A stretch of 52,097 bases of DNA, taken from contig PBMS01000014.1 of assembly GCA_002722695.1 (NCBI GenBank), forward strand, positions 5,486 to 57,582, given 5' to 3'. The first letter of the stretch is position 1. Each line of letters opens with the position of its first letter. This stretch comes from Methanobacteriota archaeon. Its GTDB lineage: Archaea; Thermoplasmatota; Poseidoniia; Poseidoniales; Poseidoniaceae. Positions 9,942 through 21,439 of this stretch are shown one piece after another. A program made the position numbers and the translations under genes. The notes below the pieces were generated by a model that did not search any database, was not told the DNA's origin, and saw nothing but the letters and a program-made list of their open reading frames with translations.

Positions 9942-12812
9942 TCAGGAATCCGATTTGCTGTCGTATCGCTGCCACTCATCGTTCGTGTCTGCGTCTCGGT
10001 ACCAGAAATCGTTGGATTTGGGAGGCCATTCAATCCACTCGTAGCCGTCGTCCACTGCGCCGCTCATGCCAATTGGTGGAGATTGTTTTCCGGAGACCCA
10101 CTCTTCAATCGATTTGCTCGGGGACGTCACTCCGAACATCTGGTCAACGGATTCAGTGTTCCATTTCTCGTCGTCGCCCTTCCGGTTTTTGCCGCTCCTG
10201 AAGATGACGATCAGCATCGAGCAGACCGATACACCAACCGAAGCCATGGCAACGTACAGCACCCACGGGGCGATGGACTCCTCAACAACAACGCTTACTT
10301 GGTCCTGACTTCCCGTGGAATTTTCAGAGGGGCAATCAAACCCGTTGAGCACGATGTAGTTACCATCCGGGCAAATTTGGTACTCGTCTGAGCGATTAGA
10401 ACCCGGGTCAACGATGATGTTGGTGACGTTGGTTTCGTTGGCGATTTGCTTTGATTCTGGACACTCATCGATGTCGTCCACCACGTCCAGCGTGACCGGG
10501 CAAAGGTAGTAGAATTCAACGCCTTCGGGTGCAGTGGTCGTGTTTCCATCGGCATCCGTGCAGCAGTCCAAGTCTTCGGTCGCATCGTGACATCCGTCGC
10601 CGTCCGCGTCGGTGTTCGGGTTTGATATCCAACCCGTCATGCCTCTGGGACACGAATCCACTGCGTCCAGGATGCCGTCGTTGTCGTCATCGTAATCCTC
10701 ATCCGTATCTCGGCACCCGTCTCCATCATGATCGGTCAACGTGCCCGATGGCCACGAAAGCGCGCCTGGATTGCATGAATCTGAGCCGTCGTTCACGCCG
10801 TCGTTGTCGTCGTCAATGTCCTCGCTGTCCTTGCATCCATCTTCATCGGCGTCCGACCCGTAGCCCAGCACACCTCGAGGGCACATGTCGAGGGTGTCCG
10901 CAACACCGTCAGCATCGTCATCGTAGTCTTCGGTGTTGTCTTCGCATCCGTCCAAATCGTGATTCGTGTCAGGGTTGCTCTCCCAATCCAGGTCGCTTGT
11001 TGGGCAAGCATCAGCGTCGTCGGGGATCGCATCGCCGTCGTCGTCAGCGTCGCAAGCGTCTCCTTCACCGTCGCCGTCGTAATCGCTTTGCTCCGGATTG
11101 TAGTCCGAGGGACAATTGTCGCCTTCACCGATTCCATCGCCGTCTCGGTCCACGGCAAAATTCGTGAAAGATTCGTACCACACGTTGTTGATTCGAACCT
11201 CTTCCCAAATCATCAAATCACCGTTCGGGCTTACGGCCAAGGGGTACATGTTGTGGTTCCCCCACGATTCGATCGGCTTGAAATCGAGGACGCCTCCGTC
11301 CTCATGGTCGATGAAGGCGAGTCCTCCGTAGTGCGACGTCCCGTCGGGAAGGACAACGTCGCCTTCTCCGCCGCGACCTTTGAAGTAGGCAGAAAGGTAT
11401 CCGTTTGGGCCGACGACGGGTTTTGCAGCGTAATCGTTGTTGTACGAGTCTGTGTTTTCATAGCCCACGCTTGTGTGCGACTTGTAGGCTCCTTGGGCGT
11501 TGATGGTCACGAACGTCTGATACGTCGAGACCGTAAACTGACCGGGCATGGCGAAGTATTGACCGTCGTAAAAGCCACCGTCAAACGATTGGAAGTGGAA
11601 CGTAACATCACCGTTGTCGTGAGCAAACAACCCTGCAAAGCCCTCATCCCGCTGATCAAAGAAATTCGGTATGTCGTTTCCGCTGCTCGACGTGATCGGT
11701 TCGGCCATGTCCCACACGCCTTGACTGGACAGTTTTGCGATGTAGCCGGTTCGTGCGTTGTGTTCCACCACGGTTCCTGAGAAGTTGCTCTGTGTGTACA
11801 GATCATCCAGCTCCCCGTAGGTTGTTCCCAAAAGGTACATGCTTCCGGAACTGACCAGAGATTCGGTGAACTTCATCGAGGTGTAATTCACCACGACGTC
11901 CTCTTGCTTGATGCCGTTGGAATCAATGCTGAACCATATGTGGCAGTGGTCGTCGATCGAATCCGACGGACATGACACGGTTTGCGAGTCGTATCGAATG
12001 CTCCCCTTGGTGAAGGTGAAGAAGTGAGTCTGCGTACCGTCAACATCAACGAGGACAGGATTGTAATCGTAGGTTGGCCACTCGTGGGAAACTTCGAGAT
12101 TTCGTGCCCATTTGCCGCCGTTTTCATCGAACGCTCGTACGGTGTATTCGTGAAGGCCTCCGTTGCTGTTTTCCTTGAACACAACAATGAGGTTGTTGTC
12201 TGCGTCGACCTCCTGCTTGATGACGTAATCCACCGTCCAGCCTCGGGTTTGAACAGAATCTGCGAATTGCCAACCGTTGAGATTGTGATACGCAACGGCA
12301 AAGCGGTGCCCGTTCACGTCCATCTCAACATCGTCGCCGAGTTCAAATGTGGTGCTGTGATACGTTTGCCAGGTCATGTAGAACGTGTCCTCAGCAATCA
12401 CATGCAAGCCCATCAACCGGCATGAGTTGTGGTTCACGTTGTTGCAGTCGTTTCGAGTGGACGTGATGTTTTTTGTCCACTGAAGAACCCCCGTTGAATC
12501 GTATTTCAGAATGTAAATGCCGCGCTGATCGGATGCGTGCGTTGCGTCTCCTGGATTTGCCGGTTGAATCTGAACGTTTTCATCGACAAAGGCAACGTAA
12601 AAGTTGCCCGAATCATCGTATCCATAACTTCCGTCCCAAAATCTCAGGATATGACTGGAATACAACTGCAGGTCTTCGGAGGCGCGAAGTTTCCAGCCGT
12701 CAATCCATATCTCTGGATCTGGTTCCGGTGTTTCCTCAGCCGAGACAGCAAAGGTCAGTGTGGTGGAACACACCATGAGCAATGCTGCAATGTAAACACC
12801 AATTTTCTTCAT
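9942..12812 (-). CDS. Secreted, membrane-anchored protein with beta-rich N-terminal region and thrombospondin type-3-like Ca-binding repeats
   Basis: Signal peptide MKKIGVYIAALLMVC...SA; repeats D.D.DG..D..D.CP; TM WVLYVAMASVGVSVCSMLIVIF; Trp-rich cytoplasmic tail. Confidence 0.85.
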   Translation of the reverse strand: MKKIGVYIAALLMVCSTTLTFAVSAEETPEPDPEIWIDGWKLRASEDLQLYSSHILRFWDGSYGYDDSGNFYVAFVDENVQIQPANPGDATHASDQRGIYILKYDSTGVLQWTKNITSTRNDCNNVNHNSCRLMGLHVIAEDTFYMTWQTYHSTTFELGDDVEMDVNGHRFAVAYHNLNGWQFADSVQTRGWTVDYVIKQEVDADNNLIVVFKENSNGGLHEYTVRAFDENGGKWARNLEVSHEWPTYDYNPVLVDVDGTQTHFFTFTKGSIRYDSQTVSCPSDSIDDHCHIWFSIDSNGIKQEDVVVNYTSMKFTESLVSSGSMYLLGTTYGELDDLYTQSNFSGTVVEHNARTGYIAKLSSQGVWDMAEPITSSSGNDIPNFFDQRDEGFAGLFAHDNGDVTFHFQSFDGGFYDGQYFAMPGQFTVSTYQTFVTINAQGAYKSHTSVGYENTDSYNNDYAAKPVVGPNGYLSAYFKGRGGEGDVVLPDGTSHYGGLAFIDHEDGGVLDFKPIESWGNHNMYPLAVSPNGDLMIWEEVRINNVWYESFTNFAVDRDGDGIGEGDNCPSDYNPEQSDYDGDGEGDACDADDDGDAIPDDADACPTSDLDWESNPDTNHDLDGCEDNTEDYDDDADGVADTLDMCPRGVLGYGSDADEDGCKDSEDIDDDNDGVNDGSDSCNPGALSWPSGTLTDHDGDGCRDTDEDYDDDNDGILDAVDSCPRGMTGWISNPNTDADGDGCHDATEDLDCCTDADGNTTTAPEGVEFYYLCPVTLDVVDDIDECPESKQIANETNVTNIIVDPGSNRSDEYQICPDGNYIVLNGFDCPSENSTGSQDQVSVVVEESIAPWVLYVAMASVGVSVCSMLIVIFRSGKNRKGDDEKWNTESVDQMFGVTSPSKSIEEWVSGKQSPPIGMSGAVDDGYEWIEWPPKSNDFWYRDADTNDEWQRYDSKSDS
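10560..11155 (-). repeat. Tandem TSP3-like protein repeats (coding)
   Basis: Roughly 6-7 units such as DRDGDGIGEGDNCP, DDDGDAIPDDADACP, DDDADGVADTLDMCP, DDDNDGILDAVDSCP alternating with D.D.DGC.D. Confidence 0.85.
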
Positions 12813-14144: not shown

Positions 14145-15890
14145 TCAGTAATCCGAATACGCCAAGAACCGCATGTAGGTGCCGTAGATCGTGACCGAAA
14201 CATCGAGCGATTCTTCGTTAAAGCGATCCATGGTGTCGGCGTAGGTGTGGTACTCCCAACTGCCGCTGCCGTAGCACACCACCGCGCGACCTCGCTCTCC
14301 ACCGCCCAAATCGTAGACGAAGGGTGCGTGGTCGGAGTTGTAGGGCATGCCGTCGGGTTCGCCTCGGTCCCCGGGGAGAGTCCGAACCTGGATGTCGTAC
14401 TGGTTGGCGACCTCCGAGCGTTCGTTCCTGTAGAGCTCTGTGATGCGCTCGATGTGGTCCATGTCGTCCTGTTCGTTGCCAAACAGGGTCACTGTGTTGC
14501 CACGGTTGGACATGTCGGCATCGACGTGATTCATGTCGAGGTTGAGATAGAGACGTAGATTGTCCTGCAGGCTGTTTTGGAAGGCTTGGACGTACGCACG
14601 ACTTCCGTAGAGCCCTTCTTCTTCGCCGCCCCACGTGCAGAACCGAAGCGTGCGCTCGGGCTGACCCGTCTCGTTGACAATGGCGCTGAGTTGTCGACCG
14701 ATTTCCATCACGCTGGCGGTGCCCGACGTGTCGTCAACGGCGCCTTGTCCGTTGTAGACGGTGTCGTGGTGGCCGCCGACGATCACGACCTCCGAGGACT
14801 TACCGCGTATCTCTCCGCACGGGACATAGATCGTGCGTTCTTCGTCGTTGGTGACGTCGATGATCATCTCCAACACGCCCGGTGGTCCGGTGGCGTTGAA
14901 GATCGCCTGCTCGAGAATTTCGCCGGCGTCTTTCGACATGGCGATGAAAGGAAGCTCGCTTGGAACGCTGCCTCCGTTGGCTTCGCTCACCTCGTCGATT
15001 CGACTTCCTTTGAAGATGGGAACGCAGTCGTTGGCTTCGATTTGACCGCAGTTCGCGTCTTTGTTCACGAATATGAGGCCTGCAAGGTTGTTTTCGGCGG
15101 CCAGGGAGAACATGCCCGTGTTGCCGCCCACGTCCGCTCCGCTACGAACGTAGCCGATGCTTCCACCGGCTGAAGCCCACAGGGCGTCGTCGGTTCCGTT
15201 GCCCAAGTCTGTCAGCTGCACGTCTTCTTGGAAGGTGTATGCGGATTGCCCGGAAAAGCCCTGAATGACGTAGTCGATTCGATGCTGGAACTGAACAACC
15301 TGCGAGCCGATGGCCAGCGGACCTTCGCAGGGGCTGTTGCCGCCGAACCCTTGCGTGCAGATTCTCAAACTCGGTTCGCTGTTGACGTGATGCATCGGCA
15401 CCTGATAGGTGTGCTCAGTGACCGACATGCCCATGGCCTCAAACTGCGAAGCGATGTAAGCCGAGGTGTTGGCCTCTTCGACGGTACCGCTCATCCTTCC
15501 CTCCCATTCCGGGTGGCCCAGAGCCACCAAATCCTCGGCGAAGGCGCGTGTTTGGGCCGCATCGTAATCGATGAGGTCGTACTCGTAGTTGGGTGAGAAC
15601 CCAAGCCACGTCGGGCGGAACACAAACACGGCGGTGACCATCAACACCACAACACCGATGGCCATCAGGGCCTGAGGGGTGAGCACGTCGGTGCTGCGCC
15701 ACCAAGGCGTGTCTTCTGTGAGGGGGTCGGCGTCCTGTGCCTCGGGTTCGTCCTCCAGACTCAGCACGGCATCCTGCGCGCTGTTTTTGTCCAACCGTTC
15801 GATGAGTTGGGCCTTTGACCCGCTGACAGGAAGATTCAGTTCTCGAAGCATGCCCTTGAGTTCGGCGACGGTTTTGTCATCCAGCTTCAT
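14145..15890 (-). CDS. SAP domain + TM + PA/M28 family metallopeptidase
   Basis: N-terminal LDDKTVAELKGMLRELNLPVSGSKAQLIERL (SAP); TM ALMAIGVVVLMVTAVFVF; M28 motifs GGHHDT, GAVDDTSG, WGGEEEGLYGS, LNLDM, SDHAPF, YHTYADT. Confidence 0.9.
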   Translation of the reverse strand: MKLDDKTVAELKGMLRELNLPVSGSKAQLIERLDKNSAQDAVLSLEDEPEAQDADPLTEDTPWWRSTDVLTPQALMAIGVVVLMVTAVFVFRPTWLGFSPNYEYDLIDYDAAQTRAFAEDLVALGHPEWEGRMSGTVEEANTSAYIASQFEAMGMSVTEHTYQVPMHHVNSEPSLRICTQGFGGNSPCEGPLAIGSQVVQFQHRIDYVIQGFSGQSAYTFQEDVQLTDLGNGTDDALWASAGGSIGYVRSGADVGGNTGMFSLAAENNLAGLIFVNKDANCGQIEANDCVPIFKGSRIDEVSEANGGSVPSELPFIAMSKDAGEILEQAIFNATGPPGVLEMIIDVTNDEERTIYVPCGEIRGKSSEVVIVGGHHDTVYNGQGAVDDTSGTASVMEIGRQLSAIVNETGQPERTLRFCTWGGEEEGLYGSRAYVQAFQNSLQDNLRLYLNLDMNHVDADMSNRGNTVTLFGNEQDDMDHIERITELYRNERSEVANQYDIQVRTLPGDRGEPDGMPYNSDHAPFVYDLGGGERGRAVVCYGSGSWEYHTYADTMDRFNEESLDVSVTIYGTYMRFLAYSDY

Positions 15891-16519: not shown

Positions 16520-16735
16520 GACTCAAATCCATTGGCTCTTACATTTAGCCTCTTGTTCTTTCTCTCCACGTTTTTTTCACACCTGTCTGTGTGCCTGCGG
16601 TCAGTCACATCGGTATGCACGAAGAGAACGCACGACGAACCCATGTGTTCGTTTGTAATCTTCACAAGGGTGTTGCGGAGAACCCTCATGTAAGAAAGTT
16701 GGAGTTTCTTCATTGCACGAACTCAAATCTCAATT

Positions 16736-19012
16736 TCAACTAAGAAGAAGAAGGCTAAGTTGCATCACAGCGGCTCCAAAGACCGCACCAACGAGCAGAT
16801 GTTTAGGGCGATTTTGTTCTCTCGCTTGTGGAATCAGTTCATTGTATGCAACTACTGTCATGATCCCTCCGACAAATGCCAGCGAGCACCCTACCATGAA
16901 CGGGGTCAAAATCGGACCGAGAATCAACAAAGCGAACAAAGCCCCGAGCGGTTCGGTAAAACCGGTCGCCATTGCGATAAGCGTCGCCTTCATTCGACCG
17001 CCACCGCCTGCTTGTATTGGTGCGGCCACAGCAATGCCTTCGGGGATGTTGTGAAGAGCGATTGCGGCCATGAGCACGACACCGTACTGAGCTGATTCAA
17101 GAACGGCCACGCCCATGGCCAAACCTTCCGGGAAATTGTGAATGGCGAGGGCGATGGCTGTGAGGATGCCAGATTTGTACAATTTTCGTTCCTTTGACAT
17201 CGAGGAGAGATCTTCGTCCTTGTTCGCGTACATGCTCACGGCATAAACGATACCTACTCCCACACCAAACGAGAGCGTGATAGGAAGGAAGCCATTTTCC
17301 ATGGCTTGACCGAACCACAAATCGAGAACGGAAACCAAAAGCATCACGCCAGCGGCCATGGCGAGCAAAAAGGCCATCATTCCCTGACTGATTTCTTTTA
17401 GAACAAACACGATGAGGCCACCAATCCCAGTGGCGAGGCCTGCGAGCAATGCGAGAACAAACGGAAAGACCCAAGATTCAGACTCGCCCTCCAAGCCTGA
17501 AATTTGGATGAGTGGTTCCTCAATGCTCTCATGACCTCCTTGAGCAAGAAGGATTTGGAGGACGATTTCCACTGTCAACGCTAATCCGTCTTGGTGAACA
17601 ACATCTGGAACGTCGGTTGGACGGTGGTATTGTTCGTATTCCCACCCGTAAAACCCGACGGTTGTGGTCCCGTGTTGGTTAAACGAACGATGGTCGCTGT
17701 TTCCACCAAATTCGTTCAGTATGACGTTCGCCTCGTAATCCGCCCATACTTCATGCCCCAACACCGAACGTTGAATCTTGGAAATTGACTCGACAAGGCT
17801 CTGATCTGAGGTTTCAATACCGAGCGTTCCGAGTCCTATCGAGGGATTCAAGTTCGTTGAATCGAGGTTGATGTACAGATCAAGGTTTTCGACTTCTTCG
17901 GTGTAGGATTGTATGTAGGATTGACTCCCCAACAACCCCAGCTCTTCACCGCCCCATGTGGCAAAGGTGACGGTCGATTCAAGATTGAGTTCACTCAATT
18001 GAGTGGCAACCTCGAAAAGTTGGGCCACACCGACGGCGTTGTCTACGGCGCCAGGACTGATGTATACTGAATCATGATGGGCGCCAACCAATATCTCTCC
18101 ATTCCCGTGGCCAGGGAGTTCCCCCGTCACCACTTTCACGCTTCTCATACCAACGTTATTTCCTTCCCAGAATCCGTCCAGAGAAGCATACAAGGTGGGG
18201 TCGCTTGCAGCTTGTTCGATGTAATCATGGAACTTCACTGCAACACTTTCAGCGATGTAGATGTAAGGAATCAATGCATCAGCGTATTGACCGCCATAGG
18301 CATCAGGGAACGGAACGGTTGCACCGTCTTCTTGCACGGTAACGGAGCGAAAGGGAGGTGTCTCGACGCCCTCTGTGTAGATCATGACAACGCCTGCATT
18401 TCGATCAATGGCATCTTTGTAGATTTCAGCGAGACTACGGGTGTTGTCATGGTTAATCATCACGGCGAGGTCCGTCATATCACCAATATTTTCAAAATTC
18501 TCAGCTGACCCGTTGCCGATGAAGGTGAGCATGTTGTCGTGCTTGTGAATTGAACCCGAGTATCCCATGAACGTGAAACTCTCAACGTGATTCAAATCCC
18601 CCGTTTCGTCAATTGCAACCCGACCCGTGCCCGCCGAACCATCCGGCAAGCCTGGGGCATTTTGCACACCCTGCTCCAACTGTGCATGCATCAAAATTTG
18701 GTGGTCTTCTGGCTCCGCGTCAACAAACCATGCTCCAGTCACTTGAAATTCCTCTACTCTGACGTTCTCCAAGCCGATTTCCGTGAAACGCTTACTGATA
18801 TAATCTGAAGCAAGTGTTTCTTCCACTGAACCTGCAACCCTCGGTCCAAGCGAGGCGATGTTCGATACATCTTCCATCATTTTTGAATCATCGATTGCAA
18901 AGGCCACCTCTTCCTCTTCATGGAGGAGAAACTCATACGTAAAACTCGATAACAAAACAATGGTGGAAACAACACCAACCACAGTAAGCATTCGGTCTGA
19001 CGACAGGCCCAT
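16736..19012 (-). CDS. Fusion: N-terminal anchor + PA/M28 metallopeptidase + ZIP (ZupT/GufA) divalent metal transporter
   Basis: M28 motifs GAHHDS, GAVDNAVG, WGGEELGLLGS, INLDS, SDHRSF, YHRPTD; from about aa 514 ZIP motifs LAGLATGIGG, AAGVML, HNFPEG, HNIPEG, EPLGA, ELIPQA; one uninterrupted 758-aa ORF. Confidence 0.9.
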   Translation of the reverse strand: MGLSSDRMLTVVGVVSTIVLLSSFTYEFLLHEEEEVAFAIDDSKMMEDVSNIASLGPRVAGSVEETLASDYISKRFTEIGLENVRVEEFQVTGAWFVDAEPEDHQILMHAQLEQGVQNAPGLPDGSAGTGRVAIDETGDLNHVESFTFMGYSGSIHKHDNMLTFIGNGSAENFENIGDMTDLAVMINHDNTRSLAEIYKDAIDRNAGVVMIYTEGVETPPFRSVTVQEDGATVPFPDAYGGQYADALIPYIYIAESVAVKFHDYIEQAASDPTLYASLDGFWEGNNVGMRSVKVVTGELPGHGNGEILVGAHHDSVYISPGAVDNAVGVAQLFEVATQLSELNLESTVTFATWGGEELGLLGSQSYIQSYTEEVENLDLYINLDSTNLNPSIGLGTLGIETSDQSLVESISKIQRSVLGHEVWADYEANVILNEFGGNSDHRSFNQHGTTTVGFYGWEYEQYHRPTDVPDVVHQDGLALTVEIVLQILLAQGGHESIEEPLIQISGLEGESESWVFPFVLALLAGLATGIGGLIVFVLKEISQGMMAFLLAMAAGVMLLVSVLDLWFGQAMENGFLPITLSFGVGVGIVYAVSMYANKDEDLSSMSKERKLYKSGILTAIALAIHNFPEGLAMGVAVLESAQYGVVLMAAIALHNIPEGIAVAAPIQAGGGGRMKATLIAMATGFTEPLGALFALLILGPILTPFMVGCSLAFVGGIMTVVAYNELIPQAREQNRPKHLLVGAVFGAAVMQLSLLLLS

Positions 19013-19036
19013 GGTTTAAGTCGAGGGGCTACACTT

Positions 19037-19058
19037 GATAAATTTAGGGCGGCCTAAA
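19037..19058 (-). promoter_or_regulatory. TATA-like box (TTTATC) with adjacent palindrome TTTAGG-N4-CCTAAA, candidate DtxR/MntR-family operator
   Basis: Plus strand GATAAA-TTTAGG-GCGG-CCTAAA, 25-46 nt upstream of the M28-ZIP ATG. Confidence 0.55.
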
Positions 19059-20287: not shown

Positions 20288-21439
20288 ATGGCTAAATTTG
20301 GTCTTACTGAAGAGCAAGAGATGCTAATTGAACTTGCTAAACAATTTGCTGATGAGGAGCTGATTCCAAATGCAGAGGAATGGGACCGAAATGGCATTTT
20401 TCCTGAAGATTCGATAAATAATGCCCGGGATTTAGGATTACTCAATTGCACTATACCCCAAGAATACGGAGGCATGGGTTTGAGCTTTTTAGATGAGGTA
20501 ATCATCAATGAGGAATTAGGCAGAGGAGACCCGGGATTTGCAACAATTACGGGCGTTACCATGCTTGCTTGTCATCCACTGATATATGGGGGTACAGAAG
20601 AGCAAAAAAAGGAATATTTAGGCAGAGTTTGTGATGGGAAAATATCCGCTTACTGTGTTACTGAACCAGGTGCTGGGTCAGATGTTAAGGCGATAACTAC
20701 AACTGCAGTGCTTGATGGAGATTCTTATATCCTCAATGGCTCAAAAATGTGGATTGGTGGTGCAGGTCATGCAAACTGGTTCTATGTGCTTGCTAGAACT
20801 GGTAATGACCAATCGCACAAATCCCTTAGTGGATTTATTGTTGAGGCGGATTCAGCCGGATTAGAAGTCGGAAAAAAAGAGGAAAAAATGGGTCAGAGGT
20901 CGTCAGATACACGTTCTGTTACATTTGAAAATGTTATGGTCCCAAAAGAAAATCTCATCGGTGGAGTTGAAGGCAATGGGTGGCTTCAAGCAATGGTTTC
21001 ATTCGATAGATCACGTCCAATGCTTGCCGCTCATGCGCTAGGTAATGCTAGAGGTGCTATGGAAGAAGCTTGGAATTATGCTAACGAGCGTAGAACCTTT
21101 GGCAAACCCATTTTTGAGCACCAATCAATCTCATTCATGCTCGCAGATATGAGTACTAAGATTGAGGCTGCCCGTCTATTGGCGCATAAGGCTGCTAGCC
21201 TGTTAGATAATGGAGAAAGAGCGACTCTAGAGTCAGCACATGCCAAGAGATATGCCGCAGACATTGGTATGGAAATAACAACCGATTCAGTTCAAATCTT
21301 TGGTGGTTATGGATATTCTGAAGAGTTCCCTGCTGCTAGAAGAATGCGTGGAGCAAAGATCTACCAAATCTTTGGTGGCACTAGTCAGATTCAAAGATTA
21401 ATTATTGGCCGAGAAATGAATAAAAATTTCAAACAGTAA
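20288..21439 (+). CDS. Acyl-CoA dehydrogenase
   Basis: FGLTEEQ, IPQEYGG.G, YCVTEPGAGSD, LNGSKMWI, KMGQRSSDT, FGKPI..HQ, VQIFGGYGYS, QIFGGTSQIQR; AT-rich codons. Confidence 0.95.
   Translation: MAKFGLTEEQEMLIELAKQFADEELIPNAEEWDRNGIFPEDSINNARDLGLLNCTIPQEYGGMGLSFLDEVIINEELGRGDPGFATITGVTMLACHPLIYGGTEEQKKEYLGRVCDGKISAYCVTEPGAGSDVKAITTTAVLDGDSYILNGSKMWIGGAGHANWFYVLARTGNDQSHKSLSGFIVEADSAGLEVGKKEEKMGQRSSDTRSVTFENVMVPKENLIGGVEGNGWLQAMVSFDRSRPMLAAHALGNARGAMEEAWNYANERRTFGKPIFEHQSISFMLADMSTKIEAARLLAHKAASLLDNGERATLESAHAKRYAADIGMEITTDSVQIFGGYGYSEEFPAARRMRGAKIYQIFGGTSQIQRLIIGREMNKNFKQ

Follow-up and report, generated by a model that had tools for sequence, protein, structure and literature searches.

A gene on the minus strand of the 52,097-nucleotide stretch of Poseidoniales DNA analysed here (the window, whose first letter is position 1) encodes a single protein that combines an M28 peptidase-fold ectodomain with a ZupT-type ZIP permease, and a palindromic operator candidate lies upstream of its start codon. 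What is new here is that this palindrome is common to the fusion and to iron-type genes. Given that the fusion promoter and the low-iron genes of the cell have this control site in common, a role in iron uptake is probable, and the fusion is probably a so far undescribed kind of iron-uptake protein. The fuller reading, an importer induced by iron limitation, likely for Fe(II), that carries an extracellular peptidase or receptor domain, is one that we hold with somewhat better than even confidence.

Architecture of the fusion protein

The gene (16736–19012) starts with ATG and encodes 758 aa followed by a stop, in a single frame with no internal stop codon; the ORF noted in a sequence-only reading of the window is thus real, with its strand corrected to minus. 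The product comprises an N-terminal anchor, a PA/M28 ectodomain, a linker and a ZIP domain, all encoded on the minus strand. The N-terminal hydrophobic helix (residues 1–35; 18908–19012), recognizable in the sequence and modelled by AF2 as a helix at residues 2–30, has basic residues upstream and an acidic stretch, HEEEE, downstream, and would be a membrane anchor or an uncleaved signal in an N-in orientation. The extracytoplasmic PA/M28 ectodomain follows (residues 36–496; 17525–18907), as indicated by Pfam, by PDB profile matches (2ek8 and 6hc6) and by Foldseek, and is connected through a conserved linker (residues 493–514, PLIQIxGLEGESxSW; 17471–17536) to the ZIP domain (residues 515–758; 16739–17470), assigned by Pfam, NCBIfam, alignment to BbZIP and AF2. 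The topology first proposed for this arrangement is self-consistent. In the AF2 model (pTM 0.63), eight ZIP helices lie between residues 515 and 757 in addition to the N-terminal helix; pLDDT is below 50 at linker residues 496–502, and the inter-domain geometry carries no confidence. Complex prediction of the ectodomain (36–496) against the ZIP domain (503–758), both entered as alignments, returned a score of 0.00 in two runs with controls not folded, and carries no weight either way.

The ZIP half matches Pfam Zip (PF02535) at residues 607–752 (6e-22; 78.7 bits against a gathering cut-off of 35.1). The NCBIfam ZupT model (NF003243) aligns with residues 512–757 over model positions 3–265 of 266, at 197.5 bits, and BbZIP aligns with profile positions 502–748 of the fusion. 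Like ZupT/GufA ZIPs (E. coli ZupT; BbZIP, 5tsa), the domain has eight helices, places HNxPEG at the BbZIP transport-site positions and covers the ZupT model end to end, which bears out its description as a full ZupT-like domain; unlike them, the fusion has about 510 extra N-terminal residues and scores below the ZupT equivalog cut-off of 252. Stand-alone ZIPs among the matches listed are about 33–48% identical. Full-length members (at least 740 aa) make up 68 of the 74 related cluster representatives, the window protein (P0001) included, and HNFPEG (residues 625–630 in P0001) and HNIPEG (654–659), which answer to the conserved His/Asn/Glu motifs of ZIP helices 4 and 5, are invariant in all 68. 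These motifs, and the M28 motifs named in the sequence-only reading (HHDS, 312–315; DN, 324–325; EE, 356–357; NLD, 382–384; YH, 462–463), are all present. The fusion is the sole Pfam Zip match in all 15 genomes in which it is assembled complete.

A candidate operator in common with iron-type genes

The palindrome, TTTAGG-N4-CCTAAA at 19043–19058, is the single match in the window (0.02 expected), and its end lies 31 nt ahead of the ATG. Directly after it, on the minus strand, lies an A/T-rich TATA-like stretch (19030–19042) whose spacing fits a leaderless or near-leaderless transcript; archaeal promoter geometry underlies this putative promoter assignment. The palindrome recurs in 15 of 17 upstream regions of fusion genes, 30–32 nt from its end to the start codon, at protein identities of 48–95%.

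A PWM scan of genome G000 (all 1.63 Mb) returned just six matches: one at the fusion gene, one before an ABC ATPase, one before a Cys-rich small ORF, one before a transferrin-like binding protein and two before an operon of Fea1, CarboxypepD_reg, Peripla_BP_2, FecCD, ABC, flavodoxin and HugZ-like genes. The first gene of this operon encodes a FEA1-related lipoprotein that scores above the NCBIfam cut-off; the 'transferrin-like' binding proteins match phosphonate-binding models as well. Across five fusion-bearing genomes we counted 26 exact palindrome sites against none for the control pattern, adjoining the fusion and Fea1 in all five and the transferrin-like gene in four. Other sites there adjoin flavodoxin, ferredoxin, the small chain of RNR (RNR-R2) and GlutR; Fe-type ABC genes, too, are among those that the palindrome precedes. 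In five genomes without the fusion the palindrome occurs 8 times and the control pattern twice, each of these genomes having a site before the transferrin-like gene, and the totals for 201 genomes are 381 and 65. Some sites stand before genes whose link to iron is not obvious: small Zn-ribbon ORFs, unknown ORFs and, at a shared site, an acyl-CoA dehydrogenase. Because it precedes both the Fea1/Fe-ABC/flavodoxin operon and the transferrin-like genes, the fusion would belong to an iron-limitation regulon.

Co-occurrence leads in the same direction. Fea1 accompanies the fusion in all 18 genomes that have it and occurs in 23 of the 183 others, a statistic that overstates independence because the 18 genomes are kin within genera; the association holds within each of the eight fusion-bearing genera. 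In one genome (G197) a stretch of about 7 kb takes in the fusion, Fea1 and the transferrin-like gene, and a separate palindrome belongs to each of the three. These results strengthen the proposed tie between the fusion and metal acquisition. Where Zn, Fe, Mn and Co had all been named as candidate cargo, the shared operator and the strict Fea1 co-occurrence argue for limitation by iron and not by zinc.

The regulator would be a DtxR-family protein. G000 has one such gene, for a 219-aa protein that combines an Fe_dep_repress with an Fe_dep_repr_C domain; Fur was not found in this genome, which is 70.7% complete. The protein scores best against MntR (manganese) models, with all regulator scores far below the equivalog cut-offs. 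The actinobacterial DtxR/DmdR iron box (PMC7174319) is 19 bp long, whereas the archaeal palindrome is 16 bp with unlike spacing; likeness to the DmdR1 boxes given there is limited to the TTAGG and CCTAA ends.

We weighed the possibility that the ZIP imports zinc (or manganese) and the surface aminopeptidase depends on zinc, the operator marking a regulon that responds to metal limitation in general or to Mn (MntR-like). The names attached to the transporter favour this, ZupT, its top NCBIfam match, being called a zinc transporter and one JGI homolog record being titled 'ZIP family zinc transporter', as do the regulator's preference for MntR models, the typically di-zinc chemistry of M28 enzymes and the operator sites at Zn-ribbon ORFs. 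ZupT-type ZIPs are broad-spectrum transporters, so Zn, Mn or Co are possible cargo. We nevertheless regard a zinc or manganese system as unlikely: the genes with the operator (FEA1-related lipoprotein, FecCD-type ABC, flavodoxin, ferredoxin, RNR-R2, HugZ-like, GlutR) are typical of an iron response, ZnuA or Zur-type genes are absent from that set, and the MntR preference comes from scores that all miss their cut-offs widely. ZnuA, Nramp and CDF were not found in the 70.7% of G000 that is represented.

The ectodomain: possible peptidase or receptor

The M28 catalytic core (residues 295–486; 17555–18130, minus strand) is supported by alignments and by Pfam Peptidase_M28 (2.2e-33; 116.1 bits against a gathering cut-off of 21.3). 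P0001 has the complete co-catalytic set, H312, D324, E356/E357, D384 and H463, whose roles we assign from the M28 literature and by alignment to solved M28 structures. Of the PA/M28 domain first proposed, the M28 part is thus confirmed by Pfam; the PA domain (PF02225) gave no Pfam match in the fusion protein at E≤0.01, and a candidate PA insert is supported instead by the fold match. Foldseek ranks the PA+M28 aminopeptidases 2ek8 and 6hc6 first (TM 0.74, target-normalised), aligned over about 460–475 columns, with TfR and GCPII next, and Pfam PA matches are present in the unfused relatives P0104, P0106 and P0113.

PA+M28 aminopeptidases (Aneurinibacillus AM-1, 2ek8; B. subtilis BSAP/YwaD, 6hc6; P. 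aeruginosa PaAP) are the best matches in sequence and fold. The fusion ectodomain follows the same succession, from an N-terminal M28 strand/helix through a candidate PA insert to the M28 core, with all metal ligands present. Those enzymes are soluble and secreted, whereas the fusion ectodomain sits between two membrane segments, is joined to a transporter and adds an insert of about 16 residues as well as MHxQxE and HKHD motifs. The motifs lie in a fusion-specific conserved block defined by alignments (residues 101–165; 18518–18712, minus strand), in which M108, H109, Q111, E113, D124, H142 and H156-K157-H158-D159 are invariant in all 68 full-length members. With the exception of H142, these residues are absent from nine aligned unfused relatives, and we regard the His cluster as a putative metal site.

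All five M28 ligands and the catalytic Glu are retained in 61 of the 68 members. The remaining seven have lost at least two of these residues, so peptidase chemistry is not essential to the whole family. It is therefore conceivable that the ectodomain is a non-catalytic receptor like TfR, an M28 protein without metal ligands that serves in iron uptake; it would dock a co-regulated iron carrier (a FEA1-like or transferrin-like protein) or capture metal at the His cluster before passing it to the ZIP, its peptidase chemistry being vestigial. These seven members keep both the fusion and the His cluster, mean identity to P0001 is higher in the insert/PA region (76%) than in the M28 core (67%), and the constant presence of Fea1 and the place of TfR among the structural matches fit such a receptor too. 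We find this rather unlikely, because the 61 members retain, besides every ligand, the general-base Glu, a residue with no ligand role, and this pattern argues for retained catalysis; the helical dimerisation domain of TfR is moreover missing.

The linker and the genomic setting

The segment between the two halves had been called a short acidic linker, and it is more than an acidic spacer: an alignment of 33 sequences shows no variation at P500, E508, W514, F516, P517 and F518. This bears on a further alternative, a fusion of convenience in which the M28 domain is one of the lineage's many nutritional surface peptidases, the ZIP a mere membrane anchor and the two activities mechanistically independent. 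Peptidases of this kind are at hand. Almost all genomes of the order (199 of 201, by match) encode M28-only paralogs of ~550–650 aa, one of which lies two genes downstream of the fusion in the window (14145–15890), and the main text of PMC6336850 lists extracellular M28 aminopeptidases as common in these archaea; the AF2 model, for its part, has no fixed inter-domain packing. An anchoring ZIP would be unnecessary, since the protein already has an N-terminal anchor helix. The invariance of the linker residues and of the fusion-specific block, the fusion's own operator and constant Fea1 partner, and the retention of the fusion by pseudo-peptidase members also make mechanistic independence quite improbable.

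Genes flanking the fusion in the window (flavoprotein, SAP+M28, PPIase, FolB and DUF4177) were found beside it in none of 11 other loci, with flanks of up to about 8 kb. Of the neighbours, the acyl-CoA dehydrogenase alone recurs, in three of the 11 (L015, L019 and L021; 78–86% identity). Because flanking genes hardly recur, the neighbourhood gives no functional clue.

Distribution of the fusion

The 67 full-length representatives besides P0001, drawn from JGI, ENA, NCBI, Tara, MGnify and Logan, share 47–95% identity with it, and 15 genomes carry an uninterrupted fusion frame. DNA contigs from three studies span the linker at 17470–17560 without indels (X1, 16977–18316; X3, 16600–18316; X7, 16908–18571). 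Two of the checks proposed with the sequence-only reading, recurrence and continuity across the linker, thus came out in favour of the fusion, and its homologs are not always separate genes. An assembly or annotation artefact, with two neighbouring genes joined through a frameshift error or in a chimeric contig, found no support and is ruled out for practical purposes by these representatives, frames and contigs.

The fusion occurs in 18 of 201 genomes of marine group II/Poseidoniales, a lineage-restricted and patchy distribution; G179, which belongs to another taxonomic family, has a fusion that is 91% identical. No M28+ZIP fusion outside this protein family appeared among the matches examined. 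Short high-identity matches (P0095-P0098, P0101, P0102 and others) were considered as split forms and look like contig-cut gene calls; P0096, the one verified as such, has an N terminus identical to an internal stretch of P0073. In metatranscriptome run X18, contigs 90–95% alike, from a relative of about 91% identity, cover much of the gene, with DNA carry-over possible.

The literature searched contained no published description of a peptidase-ZIP fusion, in agreement with the original suggestion of novelty. The main text of PMC6336850 does not describe one, and that of an archaeal fusion catalogue (PMC11237513) is without M28, ZIP or zinc; the supplements of either might list it.

Proposed mechanism and relation to known systems

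We picture a nine-helix surface protein whose N-terminal anchor would place the PA/M28 aminopeptidase-fold domain outside the cell, and whose conserved linker would connect this domain to a ZupT-type ZIP permease moving divalent metal, most likely Fe(II), into the cytoplasm. Iron would be both signal and substrate: the palindromic operator would overlap the BRE/TATA region of the fusion promoter, and the one DtxR-family repressor of the genome would probably govern the regulon. The ectodomain, predicted from its residues to be a competent di-metal aminopeptidase in most members, may act extracellularly on peptide- or protein-bound metal and release it beside the permease; alternatively it may serve as a docking or capture domain, through the fusion-specific His cluster, with release at the same place.

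The transferrin-receptor parallel drawn in the sequence-only reading has proved the more interesting lead. Like TfR1 and GCPII (M28B), both of which are significant matches in sequence and structure, the fusion has a PA+M28 ectodomain behind a type II anchor, and as in TfR, M28 ligands have been lost in two of its clades; in most members the catalytic set is intact. The C-terminal helical dimerisation domain of TfR/GCPII (PF04253) gave no match, the linker and ZIP following directly after the M28 core, and the ectodomain is covalently attached to a permease instead of working by endocytosis. A bolder proposal, to which we give a low probability, is an endocytosis-free archaeal counterpart of the transferrin-receptor pathway: the ectodomain His/Asp/Glu cluster would dock the co-regulated and strictly co-occurring FEA1-like (phytotransferrin-family) lipoprotein, or strip its iron, and pass the metal directly to the ZIP pore of the same chain. 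On this view the clades without ligands would be further along the path from peptidase to pure receptor that TfR took in animals.

Covalent union of an M28 domain with a polytopic membrane domain is known from ERMP1 and yeast Pff1-type peptidases; that membrane domain is not known to be a ZIP, and these peptidases were absent from the matches of our searches. The putative iron-limitation programme, in which a ZIP accompanies a FEA1-family protein, resembles the IRT1-type ZIPs of the algal FEA1+IRT response, FEA1 and IRT1 being treated together in Chlamydomonas iron-deficiency papers. The programme described here differs in being archaeal, in its candidate DtxR-type operator, and in a ZIP of ZupT/GufA type with a peptidase ectodomain.

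Implications for marine group II archaea

Few heterotrophs of the surface ocean outnumber marine group II archaea; iron is limiting in much of that ocean, and we know of essentially no study of their trace-metal acquisition. The conserved ZIP with a peptidase-fold ectodomain is the sole ZIP in genomes carrying it complete. The candidate operator would define a lineage-wide low-iron regulon, and Fea1, alone or together with the fusion, makes up an accessory 'low-iron' gene set that may mark ecotypes. The architecture raises a testable question, whether an M28/TfR-fold domain can feed a ZIP transporter directly. If the iron-uptake reading is true, the M28 fold would have been recruited to metal uptake independently for a second time, in a family where catalytic and ligand-less versions coexist.

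A single peptidase-transporter frame in marine group II archaea

The gene at 16736-19012 on the minus strand is a single uninterrupted frame of 758 aa with an ATG start, in which Pfam identifies Peptidase_M28 (residues 295-486, 2.2e-33) and Zip (607-752, 6e-22). This confirms the sequence-only reading of an M28 domain and a ZIP in one ORF, and all of the motifs it listed (HHDS, DN, EE, NLD, YH, HNFPEG and HNIPEG) are present. Residues 512-757 align to the NCBIfam ZupT model with near full model coverage at 197.5 bits, which falls short of the equivalog cut-off of 252 bits. The N-terminus passes from basic residues through a hydrophobic helix to an acidic stretch. The N-terminus of ZIPs is located outside the cell, and the exported domain stops where the ZIP usually starts, so we agree that the proposed topology is self-consistent.

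In an AlphaFold2 model of the fusion built from 33 homologs (mean pLDDT 81.3, pTM 0.63), residues 2-30 form an N-terminal helix. A mixed alpha/beta ectodomain follows, then a linker modelled with low confidence (496-502), and eight long helices span 515-757. The linker does join M28 and ZIP; described earlier as short and acidic, it is conserved in the family alignment and is no floppy spacer. The family profile recovers 2ek8 and 6hc6, both PA+M28 aminopeptidases, as well as BbZIP, a ZIP structure. Foldseek likewise ranks 2ek8 and 6hc6 as the nearest folds to the ectodomain (TM 0.74, target-normalised), followed by PaAP, the transferrin receptor and GCPII.

A search of 90% clusters returned 73 related clusters, 47-95% identical to the fusion and drawn from JGI, ENA, NCBI, Tara, MGnify and Logan, all carrying both Pfam domains bar one fragment; counting the window's protein (P0001), 68 of 74 sequences are full length. 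The stop or frameshift that would refute the fusion does not appear in the linker: contigs of three DNA studies span 17470-17560 with zero indels. Together with the recurrence, this excludes an assembly or annotation artefact as the source of the fusion.

In a sample of 201 genomes of the order, 15 hold a complete fusion frame and three more a frame broken by a contig end, giving 18 fusion genomes in eight genera and two families; the remaining genomes have M28-only paralogs alone, at ~30% identity. The carriers are recorded as uncultured marine euryarchaeotes, one of them as Candidatus Poseidoniaceae. The best 150 matches in an exhaustive search of 1.84 billion representatives added one full-length fusion, the rest being single-domain proteins or fragments, and none of 12 of these matches scanned with Pfam had M28 and Zip together. 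Among the matches examined, the fusion is confined to archaea of marine group II, and no description of the architecture was found in the literature searched. In one genome of the other family (G179, family f3, genus g16; C24:47547-49817, loci L003/L016) the fusion is 91% identical to the window's, versus 88-89% for same-genus genomes and 65% for another g16 genome, which suggests recent transfer or a mis-binned contig.

M28-only paralogs occur in 199 of the 201 genomes. One lies two genes downstream of the fusion (14145-15890, minus strand): this 581-aa protein, ~30% identical to the fusion ectodomain, combines a SAP domain at its N-terminus with a membrane segment and PA/M28. A 956-aa ORF (9942-12812, minus strand) matches nothing but a thrombospondin type 3 repeat and probably encodes a large protein of the cell surface. 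An acyl-CoA dehydrogenase gene (20288-21439, plus strand) near the fusion recurs in its vicinity in loci L015, L019 and L021, at 78-86% identity and in both families.

The fusion carries the candidate operator of a putative iron regulon

When the sequences preceding the start codon were aligned for 17 loci, the one alignable element was an inverted repeat, TTTAGG-N4-CCTAAA, ending 30-32 nt ahead of the start codon in 15 of the 17 and directly followed by an A/T-rich, TATA-like stretch. The window's copy (19043-19058) is the sole match in 52 kb, with 0.02 expected. In L021/L128 the acyl-CoA dehydrogenase is divergent to the adjacent fusion and the common intergenic region bears the operator.

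A weight-matrix scan of the window's whole 1.63-Mb genome gave six matches: at the fusion itself, two in tandem ahead of an operon led by a FEA1-related lipoprotein, and one each ahead of another, separate ABC ATPase, a Cys-rich small ORF and a binding protein that matches both Transferrin and Phosphonate-bd in Pfam. Those outside the window lie at C15:29813-29868 and C15:37868 (locus L105) and at C23:4421 and C23:7179 (locus L106). The operon (L105:3875-11864) encodes the lipoprotein, which scores above its NCBIfam cut-off, a 790-aa CarboxypepD_reg surface protein, Peripla_BP_2, FecCD, an ABC ATPase, a flavodoxin and a HugZ-like PNPOx+DUF2470 protein; from these annotations it resembles an island for iron/heme acquisition, archaeal and including a member of the phytotransferrin family.

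Exact palindromes number 26 in five fusion-bearing genomes, versus none for a control pattern, and adjoin the fusion and the FEA1-like gene in all five and the transferrin-like binding protein in four. Further neighbours are a flavodoxin, a 4Fe-4S ferredoxin, a ribonucleotide reductase small chain, GlutR, surface proteins and some small ORFs without assigned function. Five fusion-less genomes hold eight (control, two), with the transferrin-like protein preceded by one in all five, and the 201 genomes together 381 (control, 65). Sites ahead of FEA1-like and transferrin-like genes are often in tandem, ~34 nt apart. By its distribution, the 16-bp palindrome outlines a putative lineage-wide regulon. 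Operators on the ribonucleotide reductase small chain, a GlutR_N protein of heme synthesis and the 4Fe-4S ferredoxin (L121 and L132 in G118, L136 in G011) suggest that iron-sparing control may reach past uptake genes. Zn-ribbon or Cys-rich small ORFs of 92-114 aa, without a strong family match, stand directly behind the operator in two genomes (L106:4058-4402 in the window's genome and L117:1201-1479 in G160, both minus strand).

The FEA1-like gene is present in 41 of the 201 genomes, 18/18 with the fusion and 23/183 without, and this nesting is true in each of the eight fusion genera; as the genomes are related, a Fisher test on these counts overstates their independence. Exact palindromes average 4.4 per fusion genome (3.4 minus its own promoter), 3.9 per FEA1-only genome and 1.3 in others. 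In G197 the FEA1-like gene, a transferrin-like gene and the fusion lie inside ~7 kb, with one site each.

In the window's genome (70.7% complete) we found no Fur and one DtxR-family regulator, which, as the sole such gene found in an incomplete genome, we assigned as the candidate regulator of the palindrome. DmdR1 boxes, as given in PMC7174319, are 19 bp long and have only the TTAGG and CCTAA ends in common with it.

Substrate of the transporter and role of the ectodomain

Judged from its promoter, expression of the fusion is tied to what appears to be a low-iron programme of the lineage, which makes Fe(II) the most likely ZIP substrate, by analogy with iron-regulated ZIPs elsewhere. ZupT-type carriers are broad-spectrum, and a Zn/Mn regulon is one of three rivals; it is because of the identity of the operator-bearing genes that we assign iron. 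The scavenging device first proposed is partly supported, with the reading redirected from zinc towards iron. In the 15 complete-fusion genomes the fusion is the sole Pfam Zip match, and ZnuA, Nramp and CDF were not found in the window's 70.7%-complete genome. A Zip match is absent from 92 of the 201 genomes (present in 34 of 61 high-quality ones), making ZIPs accessory in this lineage; their size classes are ~380 aa, ~275-300 aa and the ~760-aa fusion.

None of the 68 full-length members departs from either ZIP site motif, and 61 of them retain all five M28 ligands plus the catalytic Glu. Keeping the full catalytic set, including the non-ligand general base, speaks for genuine extracellular aminopeptidase activity in most members, and bears against the second rival, a pure receptor. 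That rival draws on two clades (P0057-P0060 and P0070/P0071/P0073) that have lost at least two of these residues and retained the fusion. The third, an independent nutritional peptidase, has to contend with the same clades and with a block invariant in 68/68: M108, H109, Q111, E113, D124, H142 and H156-K157-H158-D159. These residues, H142 excepted, and a ~16-residue insert are missing from nine aligned unfused relatives. Mean identity to P0001 is 81% in the ZIP, 76% in the insert/PA region and 67% in the M28 core. The model places H109/Q111/E113 and H156/H158 within or next to predicted beta-strands at i, i+2 spacing, a frequent build of surface metal sites, and these residues may form a fusion-specific surface metal site. 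The ligand-less clades and the invariant His cluster argue that the common denominator of the ectodomains may be non-catalytic, the domain either capturing metal or docking a carrier.

We give slightly better than even weight to an iron-limitation-induced metal importer that would carry a working extracellular peptidase/receptor domain, the three rivals sharing the rest. What is new here is a ZIP with an M28/TfR-fold ectodomain in marine group II archaea, placed within a newly outlined, putative iron regulon.
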